Positions 2,043 through 22,853 of a stretch of DNA of 22,853 nucleotides are shown here, in pieces. The stretch lies in the NCBI GenBank assembly GCA_041746255.1, contig JBGTHM010000054.1, positions 1 through 22,853 on the forward strand. Direction: 5' to 3'. The translations under genes were made by a program, and so were the position numbers. Within the stretch, counting starts at the first letter, position 1. Each line of letters opens with the position of its first letter. The notes beneath the pieces are model-generated. The model did no database searches, had not been told where the DNA came from, and saw nothing but the letters and a program-made list of their open reading frames with translations. The DNA comes from Fibrobacteria bacterium (GTDB taxonomy: Bacteria; Fibrobacterota; Fibrobacteria; UBA11236).

Positions 2043-5000
2043 TCAGAACCTGAGTAATTTTCGGGTTGCCGTGAACCTTTTGCCGTTGTTTGCAACGGCT
2101 TCCACCGAAATTGTGTAAGCTCCCGGAGGTACCGGCATCCTGTCGCGACCCACACCGTTCCAGGAAATTTCCAGGATATTATTGCCCTTAACCCGAGCGT
2201 CCCATACTTCTTTTCCGCTGTAATTGAAAGCCCGCACATGGTATTGGGCACTCACGACGCTCCCCGGAAGCGCATAACGCAATTGCACAGACCGGGTGAA
2301 GGGATTCGGAAACCCCGTCAAGCTTAGGAAGCCGGACGGATGCAGTTTATTTACAACCGACTGCAAATAGGCCTCGTTCCCGGCCACCAGATAGTACTCT
2401 TTATCCTGGAAATCGGAGCCGCTAAGGCGAATCTCGGAGTCTTTACTGAGTGGGATTACCCTATTTTCAAGCGCTTCCACAAGGTATACCGGTATTTCAG
2501 GCCCAACCGCATCCTCGAGTCGGAAAGAAACGCCTTCTGTCTTATTCCAAAGGTGCGCTTCGAGTGGCCAGACCCCCTGGTGCTCGCCATCCGCGCGGAT
2601 ATGCCGGGATAATGCCTCCGCCGAAGCGCCCGGAACGCGGTTCTTAAGGAACAACCCGAAGTTTTGCCCGGGCACCAGAGGCGGGCTGATTAATCTACTC
2701 TCGTTTTTACCCGTTCCAATCTGCAGCTCCATTCCTGCCGAACTATTGAAAACTTTTATCCTCGCGCGCCAAGCATCATTGGCCGATTGTTTGGCTACTA
2801 CGGTGACGCTACGCGCCGTATCGACTACAGGGAATTTGAGCGCTACTGCCGAAGATGGCTTGACGGTTATCCCCTCCCAGGGATTTACCACACTGGAAGC
2901 GGCCAGCGCTTCCCAGGCCGGTGTTGCGCTGTTATAACGGAAGGCGGGAATTTGCTCCGCGGTCAATCCGGAGGCGGTGAGAATATCCTGCCAAAGCATC
3001 GGGAAATTAAAGGGAAGCCCAATGTCGTTCCAGAGGTTGGCTCGTAAGTTAAGAGCATAGGTACCCGAGTCGAGTGAGACCCCTTCCTCGGGGGCAGGTC
3101 GGAAAGGTTGGTTGCCTCCCACCCAGATCGCTTTGCCTCCCGAGAATGGGAAATCAACTGTCGCGCCGCCTTTATAAAGGGTGTACCCTGCTTCTGCACT
3201 GCCTTGACCGTTGTAGCGCATGGCCTTGAAATTAGTCGCAATCCAATCTTTCCTACCCACCAGGCCGGCAAGGCTTGCGTAGCCCTTCTCCTCCCAAGGA
3301 AGGCTGATAAGATTCCACTTACCCGTATTCTCGAAAAACCGGGTTTCCGAAGTATGCAATTCTTTGAACGAGGTGCGAACAAAGGCACGTCCAAAGGAAA
3401 TCGCTGAACCATCGAAAACAGCGATGACGACTTCGAGACTTCGCGACCGTTTGCGGGCAGTACCATCGGATGGATAGTTCTGACCGACTTCGATACTAAC
3501 GGTGGTAGGCGCCAGGGAGCCGTCCGCCCCGATTGTCAGACCGCCATCACCCAGTGAAATAATTGAAGGGAAGTTGTTTTCGCTTATCGATCTCAACCGA
3601 AAGGGGTTTTTCATCCCCGGAGTGTTACCTTCACTCCCGGAATCCGCCCGAACCATCCGCTTAAAATACTCCATGAAACGGGAATTCTTCAGGGAATCCG
3701 GAAGGTTCGAAAACCCGGAGGTAAGCAACTGGGACTTGGCGAAATAAGTCGAGACGAACACCGAAGAATCCATATAGGCGCCCGCAGGGACTACAGCAGC
3801 AAGGACCAAGGGATTCGCCGTTTTGAAATTCGTACCGGAGAAGGTAATATCAAAGGGAGGAGGCGAAGTAGTACTTATTAGAAAGGGTACGGGTTCGGTA
3901 GGCGCCAGCGTGGATAAAGTCACCGATGACGACGGCAATTTCCCGAAAACATAAGTGAGCGCTCCTCCCTGATTTCCCTCGACCCGAATTTGGGTTTTAC
4001 CGTTTTCGATACTGCTTTCCCATGAGGTCACCAAGGCCGGAAGCCCTCCCTGTTGACCTAAAAGGAATAAATCGAGCGAATTGCTTTTTATCCTGGCATC
4101 GATTTGCGTGGAATCGAGATCGATGATGGCCGTGAAGGTTTGCGAAGAACCTTGCTTACCCAGATTGTCTTCCTTGATATTGAGCGTGAAAGCCGGGATA
4201 TCGCTGACTTGCATGCCGGAAGGCGCTACCGCCTGGGAAGAAGCGAACACGGGAACCTCCACCCGGCTGCCGCCGGCCGCGGCTTCGCGTAAAGTCACCA
4301 CGGACGTCACCCAGGTGGAAAAACCGCCATTGGCTTGAAAAACTCCGTCGGTACTGGGGCAGCGCGTGTTGGAGATAGCGAAATCGCAGGGCTCCGTGCT
4401 TTTCAGGATACCGGATTCAAGGGACCGGGTAACGGTATGGCCTCGATTGGTTCCCTTGAAAAAAGCGGCCCGAAAAAAGTAAGTGGTTTTTTCTTTCAGA
4501 CCTGTAGCCGTATCGATGATGGTTCCGGCAAGTAATTGGCGTGACGGGAAGGTCTTACGGCCCAAAACACCGGAACCCGCAGGATCGTTTACCTGGGTTT
4601 CCGCCCACCATACCTTGACGGAATCTGCGTCGAGCGTATCTACGTTGGTACTGGATACCTGGTAGGTTGCCCGGGTAAAGTCGTTTTCCACCATGGTGGC
4701 TTCGAATTTCAACCAGCTGACAACCGCATTCGGGTTCGGATTTTCAAATTCGAAGGCCCCGACTTCGGGATGATTGATTCGGAGCTTTCCGAATAAGTCT
4801 CGACTAGGCGGTCCGATGGAAGCGTCTCGGTCGCTACCTGCGAAAAGTGAGGTGCATTCGGTATTCGCATTGCAATCGAAGGGAGATCCGATCTGGGTGT
4901 GCCGGGTGCTGATAAGATCGAGAAAGTTACTGGCATGCATGTTGATTGGTGCAAGGGCAATGGTCTTGGCCAATTGCGTATCTTTTGTGATGAATCCATG

Positions 5001-5816
5001 ATAGTTCACGTTATCGATGGTATAAACGTTCCGGCTCAGCTTGGGTTGCGTATTGGCTAATGTGATATCATACGGATTACTGATTCCGGAGAAAAAATTA
5101 TTCGCAATAATTGCCGTTACATCGCCATTTTCCACCCTCATACCAGCCATGTTCGTCCCGGCCGGAAGCCCGGCATCGAGCATGAAGGTATTGTTCACGA
5201 TGCGAATGAGTGGAGAGGGCGAGTTGGCGAACTGAACGCCCGCTCCAAAACCCCAGACGAAATTATTCTGGATAACAGCTTGTGCATTATTATTGAGAGT
5301 AATAGCTGGGGTCGCCACGGAGACATTCGCAGCCGAGGGACGAAAAATATTGGCGTCTAGCACCACAGTATTATTGGAAACTCGAATCGCTGGAGCGGTA
5401 CTGCCGCTTCCCATTTCCACCACTAATCCGCGTACGGTCACATTGGGCCGATTAATAATGAGCGCGGGGGTCGAACCGGAACCTCTGATTACGGGGCGGG
5501 GAGCCAGGTACCTTCCTCCGCCGGCGGTATCGGCCATGATCAGCATGGGGGAGGTTCCCACGTTCGCGATGGTATAGCTTCCAGCGACATCGGCAAGGGC
5601 GCCGGTAAAACCGCCCTTCATAATGATGGTGCCTCCGGCCGGACGACTCCGGACCAACGTAACAGCCGTATCCAAACTGCAAAACGGTTGATTCTGCATT
5701 CCGTTCTGAGTGGGGCAGGCTGTGCTACGGATTTCCACGTAAAGCGTGGTATCACCAACTTGACCGAAAGCTTGTAACGCAAGGAAAAGCCCGGAGGCAA
5801 ACAGGAGTTTTTGCAT
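2043..5816 (-). CDS. Large secreted protein: signal peptide, parallel beta-helix (pectin-lyase-like) region, choice-of-anchor-Q-like motif, beta-rich repeats, C-terminal FlgD-Ig/T9SS type A-like domain
   Basis: Single ORF, with ATG at 5816 preferred over GTG at 5831. Signal MQKLLFASGLFLALQAFG. N-terminal 'NG.QNQPFCSL..A'. Asn ladders IQNNFV/IVNNTF/IANNFF. 'DLFGKLR...PEVGAFEF'. Paired WNLISLPW/WNDIGLPF motifs. C-terminal FPNPF...YALP...FNYSGKEV...WNG....VPPGAY. Confidence 0.8.
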   Translation of the reverse strand: MQKLLFASGLFLALQAFGQVGDTTLYVEIRSTACPTQNGMQNQPFCSLDTAVTLVRSRPAGGTIIMKGGFTGALADVAGSYTIANVGTSPMLIMADTAGGGRYLAPRPVIRGSGSTPALIINRPNVTVRGLVVEMGSGSTAPAIRVSNNTVVLDANIFRPSAANVSVATPAITLNNNAQAVIQNNFVWGFGAGVQFANSPSPLIRIVNNTFMLDAGLPAGTNMAGMRVENGDVTAIIANNFFSGISNPYDITLANTQPKLSRNVYTIDNVNYHGFITKDTQLAKTIALAPINMHASNFLDLISTRHTQIGSPFDCNANTECTSLFAGSDRDASIGPPSRDLFGKLRINHPEVGAFEFENPNPNAVVSWLKFEATMVENDFTRATYQVSSTNVDTLDADSVKVWWAETQVNDPAGSGVLGRKTFPSRQLLAGTIIDTATGLKEKTTYFFRAAFFKGTNRGHTVTRSLESGILKSTEPCDFAISNTRCPSTDGVFQANGGFSTWVTSVVTLREAAAGGSRVEVPVFASSQAVAPSGMQVSDIPAFTLNIKEDNLGKQGSSQTFTAIIDLDSTQIDARIKSNSLDLFLLGQQGGLPALVTSWESSIENGKTQIRVEGNQGGALTYVFGKLPSSSVTLSTLAPTEPVPFLISTTSPPPFDITFSGTNFKTANPLVLAAVVPAGAYMDSSVFVSTYFAKSQLLTSGFSNLPDSLKNSRFMEYFKRMVRADSGSEGNTPGMKNPFRLRSISENNFPSIISLGDGGLTIGADGSLAPTTVSIEVGQNYPSDGTARKRSRSLEVVIAVFDGSAISFGRAFVRTSFKELHTSETRFFENTGKWNLISLPWEEKGYASLAGLVGRKDWIATNFKAMRYNGQGSAEAGYTLYKGGATVDFPFSGGKAIWVGGNQPFRPAPEEGVSLDSGTYALNLRANLWNDIGLPFNFPMLWQDILTASGLTAEQIPAFRYNSATPAWEALAASSVVNPWEGITVKPSSAVALKFPVVDTARSVTVVAKQSANDAWRARIKVFNSSAGMELQIGTGKNESRLISPPLVPGQNFGLFLKNRVPGASAEALSRHIRADGEHQGVWPLEAHLWNKTEGVSFRLEDAVGPEIPVYLVEALENRVIPLSKDSEIRLSGSDFQDKEYYLVAGNEAYLQSVVNKLHPSGFLSLTGFPNPFTRSVQLRYALPGSVVSAQYHVRAFNYSGKEVWDARVKGNNILEISWNGVGRDRMPVPPGAYTISVEAVANNGKRFTATRKLLRF

Positions 5817-5959
5817 AGAATGCTTTCCCACCGCCGGCGCGGATTACAACTCCGCCGGCTGATTCGATGTCCCTAATCCTAAAAATCTGCTCAAAAAACG
5901 AGAAACCTGGTAAAGTCTACACTGGCCAAAGATAACAAATAATGTAAATTTATGCCCGT

Positions 5960-14337: not shown

Positions 14338-15084
14338 TTGAATCAGACCAAGCGAGTCAAAACCGGATGTAAAGGATTGGATGAAATCCTCCGTGGAGGT
14401 CTCCTGGAGGGATCCGCCACTCTCATCGAAGGTTCCGCCGGTACCGGAAAAACCACTTTGGCCACCCAATTCATCATGGAAGGCGTCGCCCAAGGCGAAC
14501 ATGGCATCATGTTCACCTTCGAACAATTTCCCGAGCAATATTTCGCCTGCGCCGGTGAGCTGGGTTGGGATTTGCGCCGACTGGAACAGGAAGGCAAATT
14601 GAAAGTCATTTTCACCTCGCCGGAGAATTTCGTGCGGGACATCGAAGATGCCGAGGGTAAAATCGCAGCCATCATTCAGGAGAACAAGACCCGGCGGGTG
14701 GTGATCGACAGCGTAACCCATCTGGAAAAAATGGCGGAGGACATCGGAAAGCTGCGGTTTTTGGAAACCGAAATCGTGAACGCATTCAAGCGCGAAGAGG
14801 TTACCGCGATTTTCCTTAAGGAAAACGCCAATATTCTCGGCAAATGGGACGTGACCGCCAATAAGATTCCCTTCATTATCGACACCTACGTGCTACTGCG
14901 TTACCTTGAGATGGATTCCGAAATCAAACGCTGCCTGATGGTTTTAAAAATGCGCGGTAGCGATCACGATAAAGATATTCGCGAGTATCAAATCGAAGGC
15001 GGCGGTCTTAAAGTCGGCGAGAAATTCGCGGGAGTATCGGGAATCTTCCTGGGCACCGGCGTGCATGCGCGCGCGCGGGCTTGA
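14338..15084 (+). CDS. Single-domain KaiC-like RecA-superfamily ATPase (COG0467 type)
   Basis: TG..GLDEIL.GG, Walker A GSAGTGKT, FTFEQ, Walker B VVIDS and VLKMRGSDH. TTG start preceded by GAGGGA. Confidence 0.88.
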   Translation: MNQTKRVKTGCKGLDEILRGGLLEGSATLIEGSAGTGKTTLATQFIMEGVAQGEHGIMFTFEQFPEQYFACAGELGWDLRRLEQEGKLKVIFTSPENFVRDIEDAEGKIAAIIQENKTRRVVIDSVTHLEKMAEDIGKLRFLETEIVNAFKREEVTAIFLKENANILGKWDVTANKIPFIIDTYVLLRYLEMDSEIKRCLMVLKMRGSDHDKDIREYQIEGGGLKVGEKFAGVSGIFLGTGVHARARA

Positions 15085-15085
15085 T

Positions 15086-15853
15086 TTATCGCGTTTGTCC
15101 CGCCATGCCTTCGAAAAGTTTGCGCGTTCGGGCCAACTTCTCGTATAGGGAAAGCAGTTCTCCGCTCCATAACGGATCCAGTTCCTCGAACCGGGTGAAA
15201 ATTTCCTGGATGCTGCGCCTGCTGTTATAGGGTCCGACGGGTTCCGAAGTTGAGTTCGGATCAGACATCGCTGCTTGAACTTCGCCCGGGTTCCGTCTCC
15301 GACTCAGTCCCTGCCGCCGCAGGGTCAGCGCGCGGCGCATCAACCGTTCTTCCAGTTCCCTGCGCAGACGGGCCAGCCGCGCTTCCGCCTGAGGTAAGGC
15401 CGCATTTCCCCCGACTTCCGTTTCCATACGTTGAAATTCTGCCAGCAGCGCGGTCTTTTCTTCGGGAAGCAACAATCGATCGTTTGCGTTGCAGGCCGAG
15501 CGGGCCGAATCGGCCTTCTCCTTCCATATGGCGACGCGCGCCCGTGACAGGGGTGGCGGAGGCTTTTTGGCATCAGCCGTCTGGCGAGTTGACCACCGGG
15601 ACCATGTGCCTAGCGCCTGGGCCGCCAGTCTCTCCGCGGCAAGCGAAGATCCCTTGTGAAAAAGAGCGTGCGCGGATTCTTCCAACCGGCGTAAAAAAGC
15701 TTGCTGATAAGGACGAACCCAAGTCGACTTCTCCCATGCCTTGCGCGCGGAGGATAATCGGGAAACCCATTCCGGCGAAACGGATGCATTCGGTTCCAGT
15801 TCGGTTTCCGAATCCTCCTCAACCGGAGAAATACCCATGCCCGTTTCAATCAT
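15086..15853 (-). CDS. Hypothetical protein, DUF2894 (Zorya type III ZorG)-like
   Basis: C-terminal 'PVGPYNSRRSIQEIFTRFEELDPLWSGELLSLYEKL' resembles the GP[LY]NS...[SD]P.[YW] motif recalled for DUF2894. Helical protein. ATGA overlap with the upstream gene. Confidence 0.6.
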   Translation of the reverse strand: MIETGMGISPVEEDSETELEPNASVSPEWVSRLSSARKAWEKSTWVRPYQQAFLRRLEESAHALFHKGSSLAAERLAAQALGTWSRWSTRQTADAKKPPPPLSRARVAIWKEKADSARSACNANDRLLLPEEKTALLAEFQRMETEVGGNAALPQAEARLARLRRELEERLMRRALTLRRQGLSRRRNPGEVQAAMSDPNSTSEPVGPYNSRRSIQEIFTRFEELDPLWSGELLSLYEKLARTRKLFEGMAGQTR

Positions 15854-17127
15854 ACTTTGAGTTCCGACTGGACCAGCGCCTGCATAAGGACCTCGCGGGT
15901 TTTCAGGGAGTTTTCCAACAGGATCTCGGAGGATTTCTCATGAAATACTCCCAGCATTTCGCGAAGCTCGTCGAGAGTTTCCCGCCCTGCGTCTTTTTCA
16001 TCGGTGCGGGCTTCCAGCTTTTCCAATAATGAAGCCAGTCCCGCGTTCAACATGGATACGCCGGCTTGCATTTCATGCTGATTCGCTTCCATGGCTTCGA
16101 TGAGGGCGGAAAAGCGCTGGGTCGTCTGTTCCAACCCGGAAGTCACGGCCTCCGATTTCTGCGCCATTTCCAAATGCAGATTGGTTTGGGTATCCAACAA
16201 CCGGCGGGCATCTTCCATGACTTTTGCCTGGTTTTCGACGGAAGCCTGTCCGGCGGCCAAAGCCTGGGCCTGAACTTCAGCGGCAAAAGCACGGGAGTCT
16301 TGCGCCACTGCTTGCGAGGCTTCGATGGTTTCGCGGGCGGTAGTTTGGATAGCGTTGCTCGCGGTGGAAAAGCCTTCCAGCACCCGGTGCAAATCGGCCT
16401 CCCATCGTCCCAGGGTCGACTCAACCATGTCACGGTAACCCGCCGTGAACACGTCCCGGCTCTCTCCGAAAAGTTTTTCCAGGTTTCCCCTCAGACGCGC
16501 TTCACTTTCAGCCGCCCGGTTAAGCACGCTCTCTTGGGAAGCAGCCATTCCCCCAACCAGAATTTCACCCGATTTTCGGAAGGAATCCGCGGCCTCGGCC
16601 AAACCCTCCAACCATTGTCTTTTGGCCGAGTCCTCCCGCTCTTGCATTTCCTTCCGCCATCGCTCCAACCAATTTTCGATAAAGGCCTTGCGACCTTCTT
16701 CCTCTTGGCGCATGTGGGAGGAAATCTCTTCGGGAAGCCGGGAAAGCGCCTCGCGCAGACTTCCACCCACTTCACTCCCCATGGATTCGAATCGATCGCC
16801 TAAACTCACAAGGAGCGGCTCCAACTTTTCCAGCGGTTCCTTGAGGCCGTCCGCCGTACCTTCGCCTCGGCTAATGAGGGCCGGCAGTTCCGTGGATAGC
16901 CGACCCAACTTCTGCATGGCTTCGGCCATGCCTTCCCATGCCGCTTCGGTGCGGCGGCGATAGGGAAGCGATGCGAGCTGGCCGGCGCCGTACAAGGAAA
17001 AAAGACAGCCCGCCAAAAACATCGCCATTATCCATCCCTGATTCTGAATGGCGCCCACGGCCATGCCCGATCCCAGCAACAGACTTAATGCGAACAATAT
17101 TTGCTCTTTTCCATTCAGCTTAACCAT
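15850..17127 (-). CDS. Membrane protein with N-terminal TM hairpin and long helical/coiled-coil tail, similar to DUF802-type ZorA but without a MotA-like segment
   Basis: ATG 17127 follows SD AAGGAG. Two hydrophobic helices (ILFALSLLLGSGMAVGAI, WIMAMFLAGCLFSLYGAGQL), then ~370 aa of Ala/Glu/Gln-rich heptad-like sequence with no further TM-length hydrophobic run. Confidence 0.6.
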   Translation of the reverse strand: MVKLNGKEQILFALSLLLGSGMAVGAIQNQGWIMAMFLAGCLFSLYGAGQLASLPYRRRTEAAWEGMAEAMQKLGRLSTELPALISRGEGTADGLKEPLEKLEPLLVSLGDRFESMGSEVGGSLREALSRLPEEISSHMRQEEEGRKAFIENWLERWRKEMQEREDSAKRQWLEGLAEAADSFRKSGEILVGGMAASQESVLNRAAESEARLRGNLEKLFGESRDVFTAGYRDMVESTLGRWEADLHRVLEGFSTASNAIQTTARETIEASQAVAQDSRAFAAEVQAQALAAGQASVENQAKVMEDARRLLDTQTNLHLEMAQKSEAVTSGLEQTTQRFSALIEAMEANQHEMQAGVSMLNAGLASLLEKLEARTDEKDAGRETLDELREMLGVFHEKSSEILLENSLKTREVLMQALVQSELKV

Positions 17128-17155
17128 CGAAAAATATTCTCCTTGTAAAGATTGT

Positions 17156-18052
17156 TCATTTGCCTTGCATGCTATCACCGACGTTGCCGCCGCGCTGGAT
17201 TTCCCGGAACGGTAAGCCAGACAAAAGCAGTCGCCACTTATCCTGGAAGTGATCGACCATGACTTCAGTCAAACGTTCGCCGAACGCCGTAGTCAGGCGC
17301 ATAAACCCTATGAATCCATTCGGGCTGCCACCGGGCTTGGCAAAGGGCGATGCCGCCTTTTCCACCAGCTCAGCTTCGGACAGGTAGGGGCCGCCCGTCC
17401 ATTGCGAAAATCCCTGAATGAATTTTTCCTGAATCATACTTCCCATGGAAATACGGATTTGACGAAAGGCTTCGAATTCCGCTCCACGGACACTGGCTTC
17501 GAAAACCGGAAGCAGGCGCGTTAAATTACCGTGAATAGATTCTTCGTACCAAGAGGATGCCAAGCTCGCCTGCAAATGATTGATATGGCCTCCCATCGCG
17601 GATACCTGCCTTTCGCAATCCGCAGCCATATCATGTAGACACTGGATATAGAGATTCTTCAACTCCTTTGGGGTGCCTTTGCCCGCCAAGTGATACCCCT
17701 CCAAATCCTGGATAATCCATTGATTATGCCGCAGCACCGGCAGTAATAATCCCGGAACCAGGCGTTTTTCCCAGCGCTCGCGAAATTCGGAAAAACGACG
17801 CGAATTTTCCGTACGTAACCAAGTGAATTTCTTTTCGGCGGTGGCAAGGGTGGCCGAGGCTCTGGCCGGTAGATCGCTTCCGGAAGCAGTTTCCAGACTA
17901 TCCAGAACTCCGCGCAAAACGATACTATGGTTATTGTCCACCAAGGCGGAAATGGAGGTGAAAACGTCTGGAGAGGTTTCCGCCAAAACATCCGGGGACG
18001 ATCCCGGACTTTTACCCAGACGCTTGGCGAAATAGTTCAAATCCTGGTACAA
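17156..18052 (-). CDS. Hypothetical helical protein, DUF3348 (Zorya type III ZorF)-like
   Basis: 298-aa ORF with TTG start. 'LTRLLPVFE...MIQEKF' and C-terminal 'AFGERLTEVMVDHFQDKWRLLLSGL' weakly match the pattern recalled for DUF3348. It occupies the position ZorF takes in type III loci. Confidence 0.45.
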   Translation of the reverse strand: MYQDLNYFAKRLGKSPGSSPDVLAETSPDVFTSISALVDNNHSIVLRGVLDSLETASGSDLPARASATLATAEKKFTWLRTENSRRFSEFRERWEKRLVPGLLLPVLRHNQWIIQDLEGYHLAGKGTPKELKNLYIQCLHDMAADCERQVSAMGGHINHLQASLASSWYEESIHGNLTRLLPVFEASVRGAEFEAFRQIRISMGSMIQEKFIQGFSQWTGGPYLSEAELVEKAASPFAKPGGSPNGFIGFMRLTTAFGERLTEVMVDHFQDKWRLLLSGLPFREIQRGGNVGDSMQGK

Positions 18053-18097
18053 TACGCATCCGTTTCTGAGGGGTCGACCCGGGATGGGGAGGGGTGA

Positions 18098-18126
18098 AAT
18101 ATAGCATCGCCCCTGCCTTTCGCTAA
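18098..18126 (-). promoter_or_regulatory. Candidate extended -10 promoter for the three-gene module
   Basis: Minus strand TTAGCG-17 nt-TATATT with TG at the extended position (TGC-TATATT, 18106-18098), ~45 nt upstream of the TTG at 18052. Confidence 0.4.
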
Positions 18127-18983
18127 GGGGAGAAAAGTCGCAGATATTGCCGTAAAATCAGGGTTTTGACCGGTATCGGGGAGGCATCCACCTCCTCGTC
18201 TCCCTGCACCTGCCCTGCCTGCTCCAAAGACACCCATTTTTGGATTTTCAATTCAGCCTCTATCAGCCTGCCCTCATCGGCATGAAAGCGATATTTGCCT
18301 ATACCTTGCAGGACCGAAGAATCCGAATCGAACCCAAACCCCTTGTCTTTTCCAGCAAGCGAGGCGAAAGTATAATCGACTTGGAAACTACGATTCGAGT
18401 CCCCGCCCCCCACCTTTTTCAATTTCTGAGTCTTCACGATTCGGATGTCCGGGTCGACCTTGTCCCAAAGATTTTGCTCAACACTCCAGGAATCTCCCGG
18501 TTTAATGGCCTGGCCGGAAAATGCCGGTAAGAGCAACAACAACTGGCGGCCGAAATCGTAGCCCGATAACTCGATATTGGGAAGTTCCAAAGACTCGGAA
18601 ATCCGAATCACCTCCCCGGTGGAAGCCATGACCATTTTTAGCGAATAGTCGCGTAACCGGCGGGACATGAATGCATTTTCGCTGGAATCCCTCTCATGAG
18701 ACAGATAGAAAACGGAATCAAACTTAGCCTCCCATTCCAGCCAGCGGCCGGAGCTATCATGGGAAACCTTCTGGGTGAAAAAAACTTCAGCCTTTCCAAA
18801 TTCGGTTTCCGGTTGCCCAGGCCCGAATGCGGCCGTCATGCGCGACTCGAGTCGCAGAGGGGTTTCGGCCGGAAGGAACCCGGGTTCAAAGCTTTCCTGC
18901 GAGCAGCCTGAAAGAACAGCCCAAACGGAGATGCAAAAGGTAAGGCGGGCGAATGAGAAAGGCGGGGAGTTGCGTTGCATCAT
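18123..18983 (-). CDS. Lipoprotein of unknown function (beta-rich, DUF6263-like)
   Basis: Hydrophobic stretch ending in lipobox LSG-C, and an 'LP....IKPGDSW' motif. Start uncertain (GTG 19004, or ATG 18983/18980). Confidence 0.6.
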   Translation of the reverse strand: MMQRNSPPFSFARLTFCISVWAVLSGCSQESFEPGFLPAETPLRLESRMTAAFGPGQPETEFGKAEVFFTQKVSHDSSGRWLEWEAKFDSVFYLSHERDSSENAFMSRRLRDYSLKMVMASTGEVIRISESLELPNIELSGYDFGRQLLLLLPAFSGQAIKPGDSWSVEQNLWDKVDPDIRIVKTQKLKKVGGGDSNRSFQVDYTFASLAGKDKGFGFDSDSSVLQGIGKYRFHADEGRLIEAELKIQKWVSLEQAGQVQGDEEVDASPIPVKTLILRQYLRLFSP

Positions 18984-19034
18984 GTTCTTAGGGAAGGTAG
19001 CCACCCCGGCGGGAACTACAAAGTGGGTCGTAAG

Positions 19035-21764
19035 TTAAATCCGCTTATCCGACGAATTTTTTTCAATGATATAGTCGAGATAGGCCCGCTCGAAAGTTTG
19101 CGGGGGTAGAGCCTCCCGACGCCGCGAAAGATACTCCAACGCTTTGGGCAGTCCTGAAACCTTTTCGATTTTCAGAAAGTCCACCAGGATATCTTCCAAC
19201 ATTTCGTCGCGGCCTCCGGCATGCACGCCCCGACGGAAATAGTCTTCAGGAATCTTATCGGCAAGGTACGCCAATTGCAATCGTTCCCGTCTCGAAGCGG
19301 CGTCGTGACTATAAAGCCTGGCTTCCAAAACCTTCACGGAAACATTGGTGAGCCGGTTGATGAGCAGGGAGTTGAGAATACAACGGAACGGCAGCCCCTG
19401 TACCGATCCATAATGCCGATAGGTATTGTCGAATAACTCCGCCGCCAAGCTGTTCTGCCCCTCGAGAAAGGCCATCTGACCTTCCAGCAGGGAAACCTGG
19501 CCGAGTACGTCGCGATCGACCCTGTCGCGAACCCGAAGTTCGCTGAGAATGGATTTGGCGCGGGGGAAATTCTTCACCGCCACGAAATGCAGGGCCTGTT
19601 GCAGTTGCAAAGCTTGCCGGACTTCCCGATTTTCCTGGAAATATTCCAGCATTTGCAGAGAGTTTTGCACCGGACCCAACACTCCCTGGCGTCTGAAAAT
19701 TCCGACTAAATCGGCATAATGACGCCCGAACAGATGCCGCAGCCGATCCTCCTTCTGAATGAGAAAACGGAATTCTTCCGACAGCTGTCCCGCGCAAAGA
19801 GACGGATCGGCGCCGGAATTCAAACACTGGTATACGGCTTCCATCCGCATGCCGACGAGCACCATATTATACTCGGATTGAGGATAAGTCATGGGAATGA
19901 GCTTGAGTTTCTCATACCCCTCCTTAGCTTTGTCCTGGTTGAAATAGCATTGTGCCATGCGAAACAAAGCTTCGGGCACCACCTTGTTGTCTTTGGAATT
20001 ACTTGCGGCCACAGTGAGGTGATGGATGGCATCGGTGTAATTTTTCTGCACCATGAAACCTTTAGCCAACTTCAAGTGCGCCTCGTATGCGATTTCGGAG
20101 TTGGGATAGGTTTCAATGACATGCCTATAGGCATGGATGCTGTTGGAGATGAATCCCTCTTCCAAATAGGCGTCCGCCACCACGGTCGGCCCCGGAGAAA
20201 GGGCCACGGCCTTTTTATAAATCTTGAGGTCGTCGATGGCGAGACTGGAATTCCAGGTGTAGAAGCCGAATTTCTGCGATGAGCGCACTTGCACCGGCAG
20301 GGTATGGTATTGGTGCGCCACCAACTTTTCGTTGAGGTAAAGGCGCAAATCATTCCCCTCCTTTTCCAGCATGACCCGATAGGCGTCGCCACCCTTGAGG
20401 TTGACGTGGCTGGAGTTGAAGGGAAAACGTTTAAACGATCCGAATTCGATTTTGGCCCGATCGGATCCCCACTCCCCCAGGGAAAACCGGAAAGCGGAAT
20501 CGGGATTGGGTCCGAATAGAAAAAAGTTGAAATCGTTATCGCTGCCGTTGAGGCCTACCACCGTGAACTCGATACGTAAATCCCCGAAAAACTCCTGGTC
20601 CGCGACAGCGAAAGATTGACCTGTGGAAAAAGCCTCAAGGCGGCCACGGGTCACGCTCCAGGATTGAGACGCCTTCCATCCGTCGGCTCCCCGATCGAAA
20701 GATTGGAAATTCAGGGCAACGGGACCGTTGAAGGACTCTTCCAAAACCAGGCCCCAGGGAGCTCGCTTACTTTCCTCACGCACGGAGGAGGTGACGAATA
20801 CCACCAAAACCGAGAGCAAGAGTATGCCGGCGCTTACATATAAAATCGGACTGGTTTTCAGAAAGCGCCAGGCGATGAGGAATGGCCCGGGAGGTTTGGC
20901 CTTGACTGGAAGGCCATGACGGTAGGCGAATATGTCCTGTAATAATTCGCTCATGGATTGATAGCGATCGTGCAAATCCTTGGTCATGCACTTAGCGACG
21001 ATGGCCTCGAAATCGGGGTCGAGCCAGGGTGAGAGATAGCGTAACGGCACCGGTTCGGCGCGGATGGCATTCAAAGCCGTCTGATGCAGAGAGCGCGGAT
21101 CGAGATAGGGGCTTTTAAAGGAGATGAGTTCGTATAGGATGATACCCAGGGAGCAAATATCCGATAAAGGCGATACGCTGTCGCCGCGCGCCTGTTCCGG
21201 TGACATATAGGCCGGCGAACCCACCACCTCTCCGGATAAGGTCAAAGTGACCGCGAGACTGGGATCCAGGGCCTTGGCCAGGCCGAAATCGATGATGATG
21301 GGCCGATTACCCCGCATCAAAATATTGGTGGGCTTCAGATCGCGGTGGAGGATTCCCTGCTTATGGCAATATTCCAGGGCTTCCACCACCTGTTGCATCA
21401 CCTCCACCACTTCGTCGAAGCTCGGCTTTTTCTGGTGGAGATAGGCCAACATGTCCAGGCCTTCGATATATTCCATGGCAAGGTAGTGGACCCCGTTGAT
21501 CTCGCCCACCTCGAAAATCTTTATCACATTGGCATGGTTCAATTTCGCCACCGCGCGGGCTTCGACATGGAAACGGTCGATTACGCGCTGTTGCAATCCA
21601 AGCCCGAACAGCACCTTAATCGCCACCACGCGATCCAAATCGGTTTGGTGGGCTTTATAAACCACGGCCATGCCGCCGCGGCCGAGTTCGGAAAGGATGA
21701 CGTATTTTCCGAGTCGACCGCCGATGTCGATGGATTGATTGGAAGAGGGGGGAATTGATTTCAA
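19035..21764 (-). CDS. Membrane Hanks-type Ser/Thr kinase with C-terminal beta-sandwich (concanavalin/LamG-like) and TPR domains
   Basis: LGRGGMAVVY, VAIKV, HRDLKPTN, DFGLA and GSPAYMSPEQ. One TM (ILYVSAGILLLSVLVVFV). Beta-rich segment ending IDDLKIY. TPR-like YRHVIETYPNS..AYEA and ALFRMAQCY. TTG 21764 overlaps the rluC stop (TTGA). Confidence 0.9.
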   Translation of the reverse strand: MKSIPPSSNQSIDIGGRLGKYVILSELGRGGMAVVYKAHQTDLDRVVAIKVLFGLGLQQRVIDRFHVEARAVAKLNHANVIKIFEVGEINGVHYLAMEYIEGLDMLAYLHQKKPSFDEVVEVMQQVVEALEYCHKQGILHRDLKPTNILMRGNRPIIIDFGLAKALDPSLAVTLTLSGEVVGSPAYMSPEQARGDSVSPLSDICSLGIILYELISFKSPYLDPRSLHQTALNAIRAEPVPLRYLSPWLDPDFEAIVAKCMTKDLHDRYQSMSELLQDIFAYRHGLPVKAKPPGPFLIAWRFLKTSPILYVSAGILLLSVLVVFVTSSVREESKRAPWGLVLEESFNGPVALNFQSFDRGADGWKASQSWSVTRGRLEAFSTGQSFAVADQEFFGDLRIEFTVVGLNGSDNDFNFFLFGPNPDSAFRFSLGEWGSDRAKIEFGSFKRFPFNSSHVNLKGGDAYRVMLEKEGNDLRLYLNEKLVAHQYHTLPVQVRSSQKFGFYTWNSSLAIDDLKIYKKAVALSPGPTVVADAYLEEGFISNSIHAYRHVIETYPNSEIAYEAHLKLAKGFMVQKNYTDAIHHLTVAASNSKDNKVVPEALFRMAQCYFNQDKAKEGYEKLKLIPMTYPQSEYNMVLVGMRMEAVYQCLNSGADPSLCAGQLSEEFRFLIQKEDRLRHLFGRHYADLVGIFRRQGVLGPVQNSLQMLEYFQENREVRQALQLQQALHFVAVKNFPRAKSILSELRVRDRVDRDVLGQVSLLEGQMAFLEGQNSLAAELFDNTYRHYGSVQGLPFRCILNSLLINRLTNVSVKVLEARLYSHDAASRRERLQLAYLADKIPEDYFRRGVHAGGRDEMLEDILVDFLKIEKVSGLPKALEYLSRRREALPPQTFERAYLDYIIEKNSSDKRI

Positions 21765-22732
21765 AGCGAACTTTCCAAACGGCGGAGGCAATCCGACAGC
21801 TCTGCGGACAAGGGCGCCTCGAATCGTCCAGTCGCGCCGTTCCAGTCTACTTCCAGGGAGGAGGCGTGCAAAAACATACGGCGCAGTTCGAATTGTTTTC
21901 TGAAGGTCCGGTTCAATTCGAATGAACCATAGCGGTCATCCCCTATTATGGGATGACCTCGGCCGGATAAATGAGAGCGTATCTGATGCATTCTACCCGT
22001 TTCAATAATAACATCGACCAGAGTATAGTTCCCCATGTTTTTAAGGGTCTGATAGCGGGTTACCGCTGTTTTCCCTCCGGAATCGCTAAGGATCTTGGCG
22101 CCCCCTTTCCGGCTGTCCACGCGCATAAGCGGATCGTCGATTATTCCCGAGGTGGGCTCGAGCCGGCCTTCGACCAGGGCGATGTAGTTTTTTCGGAACC
22201 CGCCCTCGCGCAAAGACGAGGTCAGGGCGCGCAAGGCGCCGCCCGTTTTGGCTATGAGGATGACTCCCGAAGTTTCCTTATCCAGCCTATGCACCAATGC
22301 GGGTCGAAAAACCTCATCCGCGTTCCAGCTCGATGCGGATGCGCCGGCCAGGTATGCGGTCGCCTTTTCGATGAGAGATTGGCCAAGACCGATTCCGGTT
22401 CCGGGATGCACGGCCATGCCGGCCGGCTTGTCAATGACCAGCATGTCCGCATCCGCGTGTATCACCGAGAGATGAAAATCGGCGGTAATTACCGGCGTGA
22501 TGGGAAGCACGGTGGATTCTCCCGCTTCCTCTTCGCGCAATCCATACAACCTGATTTTTTCCTGGGCGACCAGGATATGCCCGGGGCCTATGACTTCGCG
22601 GCCGATTTTGATTTCCTTCCGTCGGAAGAGCGAGTGCATGCGGCTCCCGGTTAGATGGGGCAGCCTCCTGCGAATATAGCGGTCCGCGCGTTGACCCGCA
22701 TCGTTTTCCGAAACTACCAGTTCAAGTAACAT
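21761..22732 (-). CDS. rluC: RluA-family pseudouridine synthase with N-terminal S4 domain (RluC-like)
   Basis: GQRADRYI (S4), DKPAGMAVHPG, catalytic HRLDKETSG, TGRMHQIRSH, GDDRYG and RMFLHA. Start set at ATG 22732. Confidence 0.82.
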   Translation of the reverse strand: MLLELVVSENDAGQRADRYIRRRLPHLTGSRMHSLFRRKEIKIGREVIGPGHILVAQEKIRLYGLREEEAGESTVLPITPVITADFHLSVIHADADMLVIDKPAGMAVHPGTGIGLGQSLIEKATAYLAGASASSWNADEVFRPALVHRLDKETSGVILIAKTGGALRALTSSLREGGFRKNYIALVEGRLEPTSGIIDDPLMRVDSRKGGAKILSDSGGKTAVTRYQTLKNMGNYTLVDVIIETGRMHQIRSHLSGRGHPIIGDDRYGSFELNRTFRKQFELRRMFLHASSLEVDWNGATGRFEAPLSAELSDCLRRLESSL

Positions 22733-22740
22733 GGTTCTGC

Positions 22741-22853
22741 TCAAGCGTTGGCAGCGGAGGGCACTGCCGGGGAGTTTTCGCGGCAGTGGCTCCAAGTTTG
22801 GGCCAACCGAAGTCCATCCGCGCCGGAGGAAACGATACCGCCCGCATATCCGG
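22741..22853 (-). CDS. 3' end of an FAD-dependent oxidoreductase (COG2509-type), truncated by window edge
   Basis: Minus frame reads GYAGGIVSSGADGLRLAQTWSHCRENSPAVPSAANA*. GYAGGI.S...DG is the conserved C-terminal motif of this family. Not in the ORF track. Confidence 0.7.
   Translation of the reverse strand, partial: GYAGGIVSSGADGLRLAQTWSHCRENSPAVPSAANA

Follow-up and report, generated by a model that had tools for sequence, protein, structure and literature searches.

Three adjacent genes in a 22,853-nucleotide stretch of DNA from a bacterium of the class Fibrobacteria (contig JBGTHM010000054.1, the window) very probably form a motor-less derivative of a Zorya type III locus. Zorya type III consists of a DUF3348 gene, zorA3, zorB3 and a DUF2894 gene (Payne et al. 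2021, PMC8565338). As far as the available text of that source goes, phage protection by type III was tested for the Stenotrophomonas system only. The earlier note on this DNA had proposed a Zorya III-like module without the ZorAB motor from sequence motifs; the reading holds, supported instead by orthologous, syntenic loci in related genomes. Judged from the genes, the module appears to be a motor-less variant of the type III locus. The features that the analysis relies on are as follows.

15086..15853, minus strand: gene 3, 255 aa, at the position of the last Zorya III gene
15101..15241, minus strand: C-terminal motif codons of gene 3 (residues 205-251), GPYN ... DPxW ... Y; predicted docking element for gene 1
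15850..17127, minus strand: gene 2, 425 aa from ATG, 442 aa from an upstream GTG
15862..16125, minus strand: codons of the conserved gene 2 tail tip (residues ~335-422), motif NQxEMQAG...MLN.GL...ENxLKTxEv
16975..17103, minus strand: codons of the N-terminal membrane hairpin of gene 2 (residues 9-51), from Kyte-Doolittle windows; aligns with TM1-TM2 of the relative L023
17128..17155, minus strand: spacer between genes 1 and 2, 28 nt, with a Shine-Dalgarno-like AAGGAG read from the sequence
17156..18052, minus strand: gene 1, 298 aa with a TTG start, from the ORF call
18123..19004, minus strand: lipoprotein-like gene upstream of the module, 293 aa, with a signal peptide and Cys; weak DUF6263 likeness
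19035..21791, minus strand: membrane Ser/Thr protein kinase, directly upstream, 918 aa; Pkinase E 8e-47

Organization of the locus

An ORF check bears out three tightly packed minus-strand genes of 298, 425 and 255 aa, with the AAGGAG about 8 nt ahead of the gene 2 ATG and an ATGA junction at which the stop codon of gene 2 overlaps the start of gene 3. The promoter that the earlier note placed upstream could not be recovered: a sigma-70-type scan of positions 14900-19200 gave two sites, both on the plus strand, with 2.4 expected by chance. The six minus-strand genes between 15086 and 22795 are separated by -31, 30, 70, 28 and -4 nt, a spacing so close that a longer operon is possible. Chance ORFs are ruled out because a gene 1 homologue is present, in single copy, in 149 of the 151 class genomes, and gene 1 is followed by genes 2 and 3 in all 19 relatives' loci in which all three were aligned. 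The TTG start of gene 1 agrees with the N-termini of 19 homologues.

The families of the class are denoted f1 to f8, the window belonging to f1. The arrangement of kinase and lipoprotein ahead of genes 1, 2 and 3, with kaiC-like, holA and greA genes in convergent orientation, recurs in f1 loci, and parts of the kinase-to-greA order are repeated in f2 and f3. The kinase adjoins the module in five of six f1 loci (L017, L018, L020, L021 and L022, not L019) and in none of the f2, f4 or f5 loci retrieved. As a neighbour in the window's family only, it is regarded as context, and its membership in the module is putative. In 15 of 38 relatives' loci checked (f1, f5 and f6), a homologue of the lipoprotein is encoded upstream of gene 1. 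The window copy scores 19.4 bits against Pfam DUF6263, under the cut-off that the Fibrobacter copy reaches; the DUF6263-like lipoprotein often accompanies the module and is possibly an accessory part.

Distribution of the motor subunit

As the earlier note stated, the window contains no OmpA/MotB gene, and the ATGA overlap gives no room for zorB between genes 2 and 3. In the whole genome (130 contigs, 100% complete), the ZorB3 profile has no full-length match. Seven partial matches cover the OmpA domain, all off the window's contig (C54); the best reaches 66.5 bits over positions 85-202 of 215, and genuine ZorB3 proteins of the class score 129-169 bits. The ZorA3 model PDLC00648 likewise has no match in the window's genome.

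Across the class, ZorB3 is detected at E<=1e-25 in 95 of 151 genomes, distributed over f5 (89/95), f3 (1/1), f6 (2/2), f7 (1/1) and f8 (2/2). At the same threshold it is found in none of the 31 other f1 genomes or the window's own, none of the six f2 genomes and none of the 12 f4 genomes. Since ZorB3 is missing from every f1, f2 and f4 genome surveyed, its absence extends beyond this one genome; a deletion confined to it is the outcome that the earlier note would have read as decay. The survey of neighbourhoods recovered the same zorB-less arrangement of genes 1, 2 and 3 in f1 relatives.

The B-bearing loci display the complete arrangement. In L023 (f3), gene 1, gene 2, a 212-aa gene and gene 3 follow each other within the same neighbourhood as in the window. 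This order of four genes is also found in the f5 loci L030-L032 and L034, which do not have kaiC, holA and greA as neighbours. The extra gene of the sister families matches PADLOC ZorB3 (PDLC00651) over its full length (E 1.7e-50, 3.8e-46 and 4.7e-41) as well as Pfam OmpA. The class ZorB3 keeps the motor aspartate (D20) and is ~40% identical to the ZorB3 of annotated DUF3348-DUF802-OmpA-DUF2894 loci in Caballeronia and Azoarcus. Gene 2 of B-bearing loci contains two further membrane helices at ~130-195 (5/5 scored), with a TM3 of the LLGLMGTFFGL type and a weak MotA_ExbB match; the f6 locus has one such segment plus the hairpin, and the f7 locus has one anchor and one such segment. The extra helices occur in 0 of 13 B-less loci scored, save one borderline segment in L029 (f4).

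Gene 2 as a derivative of ZorA3

By its alignments, gene 2 is a ZorA3-derived protein consisting of an N-terminal hairpin and a long coiled-coil tail, without the MotA-like TM3/TM4 channel segment. BLASTP against the four-TM orthologue of L023 aligns residues 54-421 with 216-611 (410 columns, 368 gene 2 residues, E 3e-21) and residues 11-56 with 17-60. The hairpin and tail resemblance described earlier is confirmed in that both parts align with this ZorA3-like protein. What gene 2 lacks is the stretch corresponding to L023 residues ~61-215, which contain TM3 and TM4. Hydropathy identifies segments 9-27 (1.89) and 33-51 (1.59) and a later maximum of 0.82, and no MotA_ExbB (PF01618) match is found in gene 2 at E<=1. 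PADLOC ZorA3 (PDLC00647) matches residues 85-415 against tail positions 221-539 of 780 with an E of 2.4e-6, part of which score may derive from coiled-coil composition. The tail tip is kept in the aligned Fibrobacteria orthologues both with and without ZorB (19 orthologues, of which one, L035, is a mis-called frame).

The flanking genes

The gene 1 product is soluble and all-helical (AlphaFold model pLDDT 86, pTM 0.83). It stands where Zorya III loci have their first gene, the DUF3348 position, and its size also fits. The family is found in 30/31 f1, 6/6 f2 and 12/12 f4 genomes, with gene 1 identities of 34-38% across the family, and in none of 63 genomes from the phylum's other classes; it comprises 71 representative clusters among 1.84 billion proteins. 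No Pfam or PADLOC model matches gene 1 (0/20 family members), and PF11828 (DUF3348) matches none of 20 members and none of 38 representatives, in a search where canonical proteins match at 283-326 bits. Profile-profile comparison of gene 1 with DUF3348 families by hhalign yields probabilities of 1.7-7.6% and E-values of 0.005-0.03, colinear over 192-232 columns, with controls at E 0.2-0.5. The DUF3348-like C-terminus that had been suggested for gene 1 finds no significant match by Pfam, PADLOC or hhalign, so homology with the DUF3348 gene of Zorya III rests on its position.

Gene 3 is probably a diverged relative of ZorG/DUF2894, a grading based on its C-terminus. The protein is all-helical (structure model pLDDT 80) and little conserved outside this region (17-22% identity). 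The GPYNS motif described earlier is borne out by G207, Y209 and N210, which do not vary in 19/19 and 30/30 homologues; D226, W229 and Y237 are near-invariant. Gene 3 has no match to Pfam or PADLOC models, and PF11445 (DUF2894) matches 0/19 family members; the models that miss genes 1 and 3 match canonical proteins strongly. Against canonical DUF2894 proteins, hhalign gives a probability of 34.6% (E 4.1e-4), which with enriched alignments and 61 canonical proteins becomes 77.3% (E 2e-5) over 49 C-terminal columns with the motif in register; cross and reversed controls of this run give 0.2-0.3%. The claimed DUF2894 likeness stands for the C-terminal ~50 residues, the only part of gene 3 that aligns with canonical ZorG, and does not extend to a Pfam match. 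Three Polyangiales ORFs located directly after ZorB3 (L050, L060 and L107) are matched by both the gene 3 and the DUF2894 HMMs.

Predicted complex and proposed mechanism

Structure prediction places genes 1 and 3 in a complex with an ipSAE of 0.78 (runs 0.80, 0.75 and 0.78), against 0.00 for the best of three controls. The runs share at least 55% of contacts, with a partner pLDDT of at least 57. Among solved complexes, 116 of 157 attain the ipSAE mark; among mismatched pairs, 2 of 215 do. These counts are only rough with custom alignments. The predicted interface involves gene 3 residues 210-251 and gene 1 residues 30-61, 180-209 and 264-280, and includes N210, D226, W229, Y237, E192, K272 and G279. 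On these models, the two products are fairly likely to form a complex, and the partners probably bind each other via motifs conserved out to Proteobacteria.

The proposed mechanism starts from a soluble heterodimer in which the gene 1 protein would bind the conserved hairpin at the C-terminus of the gene 3 protein. Gene 2 would no longer rotate or sense peptidoglycan and would serve as a passive inner-membrane tether whose tail tip would keep the complex near the membrane. The working core would be the gene 1-gene 3 pair. If its activity is independent of ion flow, the signal must arise elsewhere, possibly from the co-packed membrane Ser/Thr kinase and the lipoprotein. This tether model is tentative, with a little under an even chance.

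Type I ZorAB is described as a ZorA5B2 proton-driven rotary motor with a signaling tail (Hu et al. 2024, PMC11946911), and the concept of a long cytoplasmic ZorA tail whose tip recruits soluble partners is what the proposed model has in common with it. According to the available text of the same source, the motor aspartate and the tail tip are both needed for effector recruitment, and every ZorA tail truncation tested abolished defence. In contrast to type I, which depends on the motor aspartate and rotation and on the DNA-binding, nuclease-active effectors ZorC and ZorD, the window has no motor, and its partners have no recognizable catalytic domain. Given the requirement for motor aspartate and tail in type I, a motor-less version might, by analogy, be inert. 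With the MotAB, ExbBD and TolQR stators, gene 2 shares the distant ancestry of its lost head domain; it differs in having neither a MotA_ExbB match nor a partner B subunit.

Loss of the motor

The favored scenario derives the module by vertical inheritance, minus the motor, from a Zorya type III-like locus of four genes (first gene, zorA, zorB, last gene), which is core and single-copy in Fibrobacteria. The window's lineage has lost zorB together with the channel-forming TM3/TM4 of zorA; what it retains is the membrane hairpin, the coiled-coil tail and its conserved tip, and genes 1 and 3. Loss as the direction is suggested by canonical loci outside the phylum and by tree placement, on a gene 1 tree that does not resolve deep nodes. 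A second case is provided by genus g24, which falls inside the B-bearing clade on that tree (SH-aLRT 100). Its loci consist of gene 1, a ZorA remnant of 180-235 aa and gene 3, with no B. Besides a membrane anchor, detectable in 3/4 loci, only the tail tip survives in the remnants (conserved in 4/4), two of which carry Pro-rich repeats. From these placements, the motor appears to have been lost independently at least twice. Reduction is carried further in G025, a reduced genome (1.6 Mb, one contig) in which gene 1 (82 bits) and the C-terminal half of gene 3 (19 bits), motif region included, form a single fused gene, and gene 2 is absent.

The comparison with canonical loci is consistent with this scenario. 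Gene order and orientation are those of the annotated Caballeronia and Azoarcus loci minus B, the long cytoplasmic coiled-coil tail of gene 2 comes from a ZorA3-type protein, the GP[YL]N...[DS]Px[WY] motif at the C-terminus of gene 3 is common to DUF2894 proteins, and the identity of the sister families' ZorB3 with proteobacterial ZorB3 adds to the likeness. The window differs from type III in having no zorB and no MotA-like TM3/TM4, in that genes 1 and 3 lie under all Pfam and PADLOC thresholds, and in being a vertically inherited class core locus, known from its genes alone, rather than a patchy island. The four-gene locus of Fibrobacter is directly orthologous, with the same gene 1, 2 and 3 families and upstream DUF6263 lipoprotein. 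In contrast to the window, it retains ZorB3 and a four-helix ZorA; in 12 of the 14 B-bearing loci whose upstream DNA reaches far enough, a secreted beta-helix protein separates the lipoprotein from gene 1, and the window has none.

Function and alternative explanations

Of the two functions envisaged by the earlier note, a repurposed envelope-linked system is favored by the class-wide core distribution, and a defence subtype is disfavored. The occurrence of published Zorya systems varies from strain to strain, a patchiness that the available text of PMC11890865 calls 'typical of anti-phage systems'. Gene 1 departs from the strain-variable distribution expected of defence systems, and its synteny with greA, holA and the kinase is conserved. 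Single-copy core distribution and housekeeping neighbors argue against a typical defence island, and make a constitutive envelope-linked or housekeeping job likelier than mobile anti-phage defence. A non-defence role is accordingly somewhat the better supported inference. Taken as a whole, the motor-less derivative with a gene 1-gene 3 core, a tether and an envelope or housekeeping role is the best explanation and, on balance, a reasonably likely one.

Active anti-phage defence, in which a motor-less Zorya III subtype senses or blocks infection through the tethered tail and two helpers without ion-driven rotation, is unlikely. Descent from a Zorya III-type locus speaks for it, as do the protection of E. 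coli by the canonical type III system of Stenotrophomonas, reported in PMC8565338, and the intact state of the module in three families and genus g24; the core distribution is itself compatible with a fixed defence role. Against it stand the distribution and synteny described above, the finding of no nuclease or other effector domain in the module proteins and no defence genes beside the module within the window, and the indispensability of the motor in type I, as stated in PMC11946911.

The tail protein could still be motor-driven if gene 2 paired with a MotA/ExbB-type stator or an OmpA-family anchor encoded elsewhere. Other contigs of the genome do encode 12 MotA_ExbB-family (PF01618) matches besides the seven OmpA-domain matches. 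This pairing is nevertheless quite improbable: no candidate is Zorya-like, the ZorA3 model PDLC00648 finds nothing in the genome, the ZorB3 matches are confined to the OmpA domain with scores well short of true ZorB3, the long MotA_ExbB genes have a C-terminal domain and an N-terminal signal-like sequence (ExbB-type), and gene 2 is without the helices that contact the B subunit. Functionless drift of the remaining genes after motor loss would account for the series from four-TM ZorA with ZorB, through hairpin and tail, then one TM with repeats and tip, to a fusion without ZorA, and for the low conservation of gene 3 outside its C-terminus. This reading is very improbable given intact ORFs in all B-less loci checked, the identity and near-complete retention of gene 1 in f1, f2 and f4, the invariant motifs, conserved tail tip and confident structure models, and a motor-less state old enough to be common to whole families. 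A spurious likeness, with lineage-specific coiled-coil or helical proteins bearing no relation to ZorA, ZorF or ZorG, is largely refuted by the ZorB3 matches in the class and the gene 2/L023 alignment, and is highly improbable beside orthologous loci that combine bona fide ZorB3 with a ZorA3 carrying a MotA-like head in canonical order.

Implications for Zorya type III

In the literature searched, DUF3348, DUF2894 and DUF802 are rarely mentioned, and no mode of action was found for the DUF3348/DUF2894 partners of type III Zorya. Zorya and Fibrobacter are named together there only in the context of Tn7 cargo, as far as the available texts go. The locus, present in nearly every genome of the class, provides a way into the role of the two unexplained helpers without the motor. 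The partners and the tail tip can apparently last long evolutionary times in its absence, on at least two occasions. With the predicted partner binding, this persistence makes the role of ZorF and ZorG, and the need for rotation, testable across natural four-gene, three-gene and fused forms. A bolder proposal, speculative and somewhat unlikely, is that the products of genes 1 and 3 and their families make up an ancient envelope complex, self-sufficient and constitutive in its role, to which the ZorAB motor is a dispensable regulatory add-on. If so, Fibrobacteria show a natural dissection series of full motor, tether only, minimal tether and fused pair without tether, and at least part of 'Zorya type III' would not be primarily anti-phage. 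Zorya III-like loci can be core genes, which HMM-based defence annotation misses and may also over-interpret.

The module and its surroundings

The three tightly packed minus-strand genes described in the earlier note are present as ORFs at 15086-18052. The module and its direct neighbours in the window are as follows.

19035-22795, minus strand: membrane Ser/Thr kinase (918 aa) and pseudouridine-synthase-like gene, head-to-tail with the module (gaps -31 and 30 nt)
18123-19004, minus strand: lipoprotein-like gene with signal peptide, Cys lipobox and weak DUF6263 match, directly upstream of gene 1
17156-18052, minus strand: gene 1, 298 aa, TTG start
15850-17127, minus strand: gene 2, 425 aa from ATG, or 442 aa if the upstream GTG is used
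15086-15853, minus strand: gene 3, 255 aa
14338-15084, plus strand: KaiC-like single-domain ATPase (Pfam KaiC, E 2.2e-48), convergent with gene 3, 1 nt between the stop codons

The Shine-Dalgarno sequence reported for the 28-nt spacer preceding gene 2 reads AAGGAG, and genes 2 and 3 join in the ATGA overlap already noted. The proposed promoter upstream of gene 1 did not hold up; a sigma-70-type scan gave no minus-strand site there, and its two sites, both plus-strand, compare with 2.4 expected. The same-strand genes upstream (pseudouridine-synthase-like, kinase, lipoprotein-like) are spaced at -31, 30 and 70 nt, short enough that an operon longer than three genes is possible. Of the sequencing runs listed as containing this DNA, none is of RNA; the DNA run X1 contains every word sampled and may be its source. 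Of the Fibrobacteria families, numbered f1 to f8 here, the window's own (f1) is the one in which the kinase adjoins the module; it is not found in the fetched loci of f2, f4, or f5. Of the 38 relatives' loci examined, 15 have a homologue of the lipoprotein in the equivalent place (in f1, f5, and f6), and the KaiC-like gene is retained beside the module in loci of f1, f2, and f3 and not in those of f5. The remaining genes of the window are housekeeping genes: greA, holA, the KaiC-like ATPase, argJ, glyA, dus, and glmU-like and phosphoglucomutase-like genes. A 1262-aa ORF at 2043-5831 on the minus strand matches no Pfam family at E<=1e-5.

Distribution in the class

Gene 1 is found once per genome in 40 of the 41 nearest genomes and, again single-copy, in 149 of the 151 class genomes sampled. 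Both tallies, like the ZorB3 tally of the next section, include one genome flagged unpublished (G021), on which nothing else stated here depends. In G001, one of the genomes lacking a gene 1 match, gene 3 sits at the end of a contig. Across a sample of the phylum, gene 1 is present in 58/58 genomes of the class, the window's own counted, and in 0/63 of other classes; when 1.84 billion representatives were scanned in full with HMMER, only 71 gene 1 clusters were recovered at E<=0.001. The gene 1 and gene 3 proteins of Fibrobacter loci match the window's families at 157-350 bits. On these grounds f5 is regarded as the family of Fibrobacter and its kin, and the class as Fibrobacteria.

Four-gene loci with a motor in sister families

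Between genes 2 and 3, loci of f3, f5, f6, and f7 carry an additional gene of ~212-229 aa; on an f8 contig it directly precedes gene 3, the rest of the locus being off the contig. This gene encodes a full-length ZorB3 motor subunit (PADLOC model PDLC00651, E 4.7e-41 to 1.7e-50; Pfam OmpA also matched) that retains the MotB-type Asp in its membrane helix and shares ~40% identity with ZorB3 from proteobacterial loci whose annotation reads DUF3348 / DUF802 / OmpA / DUF2894. Gene 2 of the ZorB3-bearing loci (491-627 aa) contains, at ~130-195, a further pair of hydrophobic helices bearing an LLGLMGTFFGL-type motif; its matches to ZorA3 models extend onward from the MotA-like head (PDLC00648, E 1.4e-15; E 4.6e-20 for locus L059). 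Gene 2 of the motor-less loci (f1, f2, f4) has an N-terminal anchor or hairpin only. The window's gene 2 aligns to an f3 protein in two blocks, residues 54-421 to 216-611 (E 3e-21) and 11-56 to 17-60, so that the missing piece is exactly the TM3/TM4 segment of the head. These orthologous loci bear out the core of the earlier note, namely a Zorya type III-like module without zorB.

Of the 151 class genomes, 95 carry a true ZorB3 (E<=1e-25), distributed as 89/95 in f5, 1/1 in f3, 2/2 in f6, 1/1 in f7, and 2/2 in f8. It was not detected in f1 (0/31, and the window's genome besides), in f2 (0/6), or in f4 (0/12), and the absence is thus no deletion private to one genome. Nor does the window's genome hold a zorA3/zorB3 pair elsewhere: PDLC00648 has no match, and matches to the ZorB3 model are confined to the OmpA domain. 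Its 12 generic MotA_ExbB genes all lie outside the window's contig; the long ones that were inspected resemble ExbB genes. The ATGA overlap at the gene 2/gene 3 junction leaves no DNA for a zorB pseudogene, and that option is rejected. The ORF of gene 2 in L035 (wrong frame) was left out of the gene 2 HMM, and L061 (no B ORF found) was also left out.

A secreted 230-240 aa right-handed beta-helix/NosD-like protein (sub-cut-off Pfam matches) is encoded between the DUF6263 lipoprotein and gene 1 at L031:5136-5855 and in 11 further loci (L030, L032, L034, L052, L056, L063, L066, L067, L069, L082, L133). It occurs in 12 of the 14 ZorB-bearing loci with enough upstream DNA, is missing from L134 and L059, and is absent from the window and every motor-less locus fetched. 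This protein is possibly a periplasmic partner whose loss accompanied that of the motor.

Relationship of the proteins to Zorya type III partners

Of the three family assignments that the earlier note proposed from motifs, model searches matched that of gene 2 and not those of genes 1 and 3. The match of gene 2 is a weak one to the tail portion of ZorA3 (PDLC00647, E 2.4e-6), covering 221-539 of the 780 profile positions; Pfam gave it no MotA_ExbB match. Genes 1 and 3 gave nothing at E<=1 beyond sub-threshold noise in Pfam and PADLOC. The models do match canonical Burkholderia/Caballeronia proteins, at 283-326 bits for DUF3348, 181-212 bits for DUF2894, and E 1e-73 to 1e-111 for the PADLOC models. 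Pfam family searches found no DUF2894, DUF3348, or DUF802 in the window's genome; for DUF3348 and DUF802 the negative is weak in itself, as no control genome gave a match either. None of the 38 longest of the 71 gene 1 clusters matched DUF3348, just two sub-threshold matches to unrelated families being recorded.

Single-sequence searches with genes 1 and 3 against an index of 5.8 billion proteins returned self-matches only, a limit of the word index, because relatives exist. A profile search with the gene 3 alignment, which scored the 8000 candidates sharing most words and left DUF2894 proteins out of reach, retrieved 81 proteins that all lack a Pfam domain; where a source name exists it reads 'hypothetical protein', and several of these proteins come from Fibrobacter. 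Four alignments searched against PDB sequences yielded no match at E<=0.05, Foldseek against the PDB gave no gene 1 match at E<=0.001, and the ESM Atlas returned sub-threshold helical look-alikes only (gene 1 0.89 to Sey1/GBP-type bundles, gene 3 0.87 to unnamed clusters).

The labels of the two partners differ between sources. PADLOC-DB v2 (PDLC00652-658) labels DUF2894 'ZorF3' and DUF3348 'ZorG3', the naming in Payne et al. 2021 is the reverse (PMC8565338), and both zorFABG and zorGABF appear in Hu et al. 2024 (PMC11946911). Because of this inconsistency, the partners are named here by position and domain.

The DUF2894-like GPYNS-type motif read in gene 3 is genuine, GPYN being invariant among homologues and followed by a near-invariant DPxW...Y, in register with GPLN...SPxYL...F of canonical DUF2894 proteins. 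Comparison with five canonical DUF2894 sequences by hhalign gave prob 34.6% (E 4.1e-4), and 28 against 61 sequences gave prob 77.3% (E 2e-5, 49 columns); controls from four cross comparisons and reversed sequences gave prob 0.1-0.3% (E 0.17-0.51). In three Polyangiales loci, the ORF directly after ZorB3 is matched by both the gene 3 family and DUF2894 HMMs. Judged by such sequence comparisons, gene 3 is probably a diverged ZorG/DUF2894 relative. For gene 1, profile-profile comparison gave prob 7.6% (E 0.0046, 232 colinear columns) with the myxobacterial DUF3348 type and prob 1.7% (E 0.029) with proteobacterial DUF3348, against control E-values of 0.2-0.5; these values are no more than suggestive. 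The N-terminal motifs LSxxMDxxxSIxL of gene 1 and LSxWLGWTDAIxL of DUF3348 line up, an observation that does not prove kinship. The alignments left out L035 gene 1, L023 gene 3, and L035 gene 3, and the canonical DUF3348 set left out L112_4078_4692, an overlapping alternative-frame ORF.

The four-gene locus L059, from a MAG named only 'bacterium', has a last gene that matches the Fibrobacteria gene 3 family at 144 bits and a first gene with a weak match (20 bits) to the gene 1 family. This locus is a potential intermediate for linking the families.

Probable loss of the motor and reduced forms

Canonical loci outside the phylum all possess the motor in an identical gene order, making its loss far more plausible than its gain. 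In a tree built from 29 gene 1 sequences, {f5, g24, f6, f7} and {f1, f2, f4, f3} are split by a branch with SH-aLRT 100, and the presence or absence of ZorB3 requires at least 2 changes. The minimum is also 2 in a 20-sequence gene 1 tree with bootstraps, whose deep nodes lack resolution. Genus g24, inside the f5/f6/f7 group, has ZorB3 in 0/5 genomes. Its loci consist of gene 1 (245-254 aa), a ZorA remnant of 180-235 aa, and gene 3 (174-185 aa). Complete remnants have a single membrane helix, and a conserved tail tip of ~85 aa is kept in all four; in L129 and L131, tandem Pro-rich PKIEI/PKIEV repeats replace the coiled coil. The remnants are located as follows, with L130 holding masked bases.

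L129:7183-7860, g24 ZorA remnant
L131:6519-7061, g24 ZorA remnant
L132:6183-6812, g24 ZorA remnant

The f2 genome G025 (1.6 Mb, one contig) encodes a 419-aa gene 1::gene 3 fusion at L137:6208-7467 on the minus strand; gene 2 is absent, and no ZorA-like gene lies nearby. The gene 1 part spans residues 22-276 (82 bits), and the C-terminal half of gene 3 spans 304-417 (19 bits) with a YN...DKIW motif.

Predicted structures and complex

Gene 1 is modelled as a long antiparallel helical bundle with a small beta-hairpin (pLDDT 86, pTM 0.83) and gene 3 as helical bundles with a C-terminal helical hairpin (pLDDT 80, pTM 0.43). The gene 1-gene 3 pair is predicted with an ipSAE of 0.78 (runs 0.80, 0.75, 0.78), the best of three controls reaching 0.00; at least 55% of contacts are shared between the runs, with a partner pLDDT of at least 57. 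Among solved complexes 116 of 157 attain the ipSAE mark, as do 2 of 215 mismatched pairs, counts that are only roughly valid for the alignments used here. The predicted interface places gene 3 residues 210-251, the conserved C-terminal motif, on gene 1 residues 8-61, 180-209, and 264-280, and includes the conserved N210, D226, W229, and Y237 of gene 3 and E192, K272, and G279 of gene 1. It agrees with the G025 fusion, where this C-terminal half is the only part of gene 3 retained. The modelling supports binding of the gene 1 protein to the gene 3 protein.

Mode of action and biological role

In type I Zorya, as described in PMC11946911, ZorB anchoring and proton flow rotate ZorA, and recruitment of ZorC and ZorD requires the ZorA tail tip. 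The same source reports that a motor Asp mutant and tail-tip deletion abolish effector co-localisation, and that every tail truncation abolishes defence. The window's module, in contrast, is devoid of channel helices and a B subunit and hence cannot work as type I does. Common to all motor-less lineages with gene 2 are a membrane anchor, a variable spacer, the tail tip, and two partners. In the simplest reading, gene 2 would be a passive tether whose tail tip binds the gene 1-gene 3 pair and keeps this heterodimer, the presumed active unit, at the inner membrane. The family-specific kinase and the frequent DUF6263 lipoprotein neighbour are, speculatively, candidate replacement inputs.

A defence role draws on homology, as type III Zorya is a validated defence system (PMC8565338). 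However, Zorya is described as strain-variable in its distribution (PMC11890865), whereas the Fibrobacteria locus is near-universal, single-copy, syntenic, and set among housekeeping genes. No effector domains were found in the module proteins, which together with this core distribution argues against a typical defence island. Among the titles and abstracts searched on DUF3348/DUF2894/DUF802, or on Zorya with Fibrobacter, none describes a motor-less form or a Fibrobacteria locus; the paper that names Zorya together with Fibrobacter concerns Tn7 cargo. Unlike Zorya type III, the module has neither the motor head nor ZorB, two defining features, and is most suitably classed as a motor-less variant that descends from this type. 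On balance, a non-defence or at least non-canonical role is somewhat favoured.
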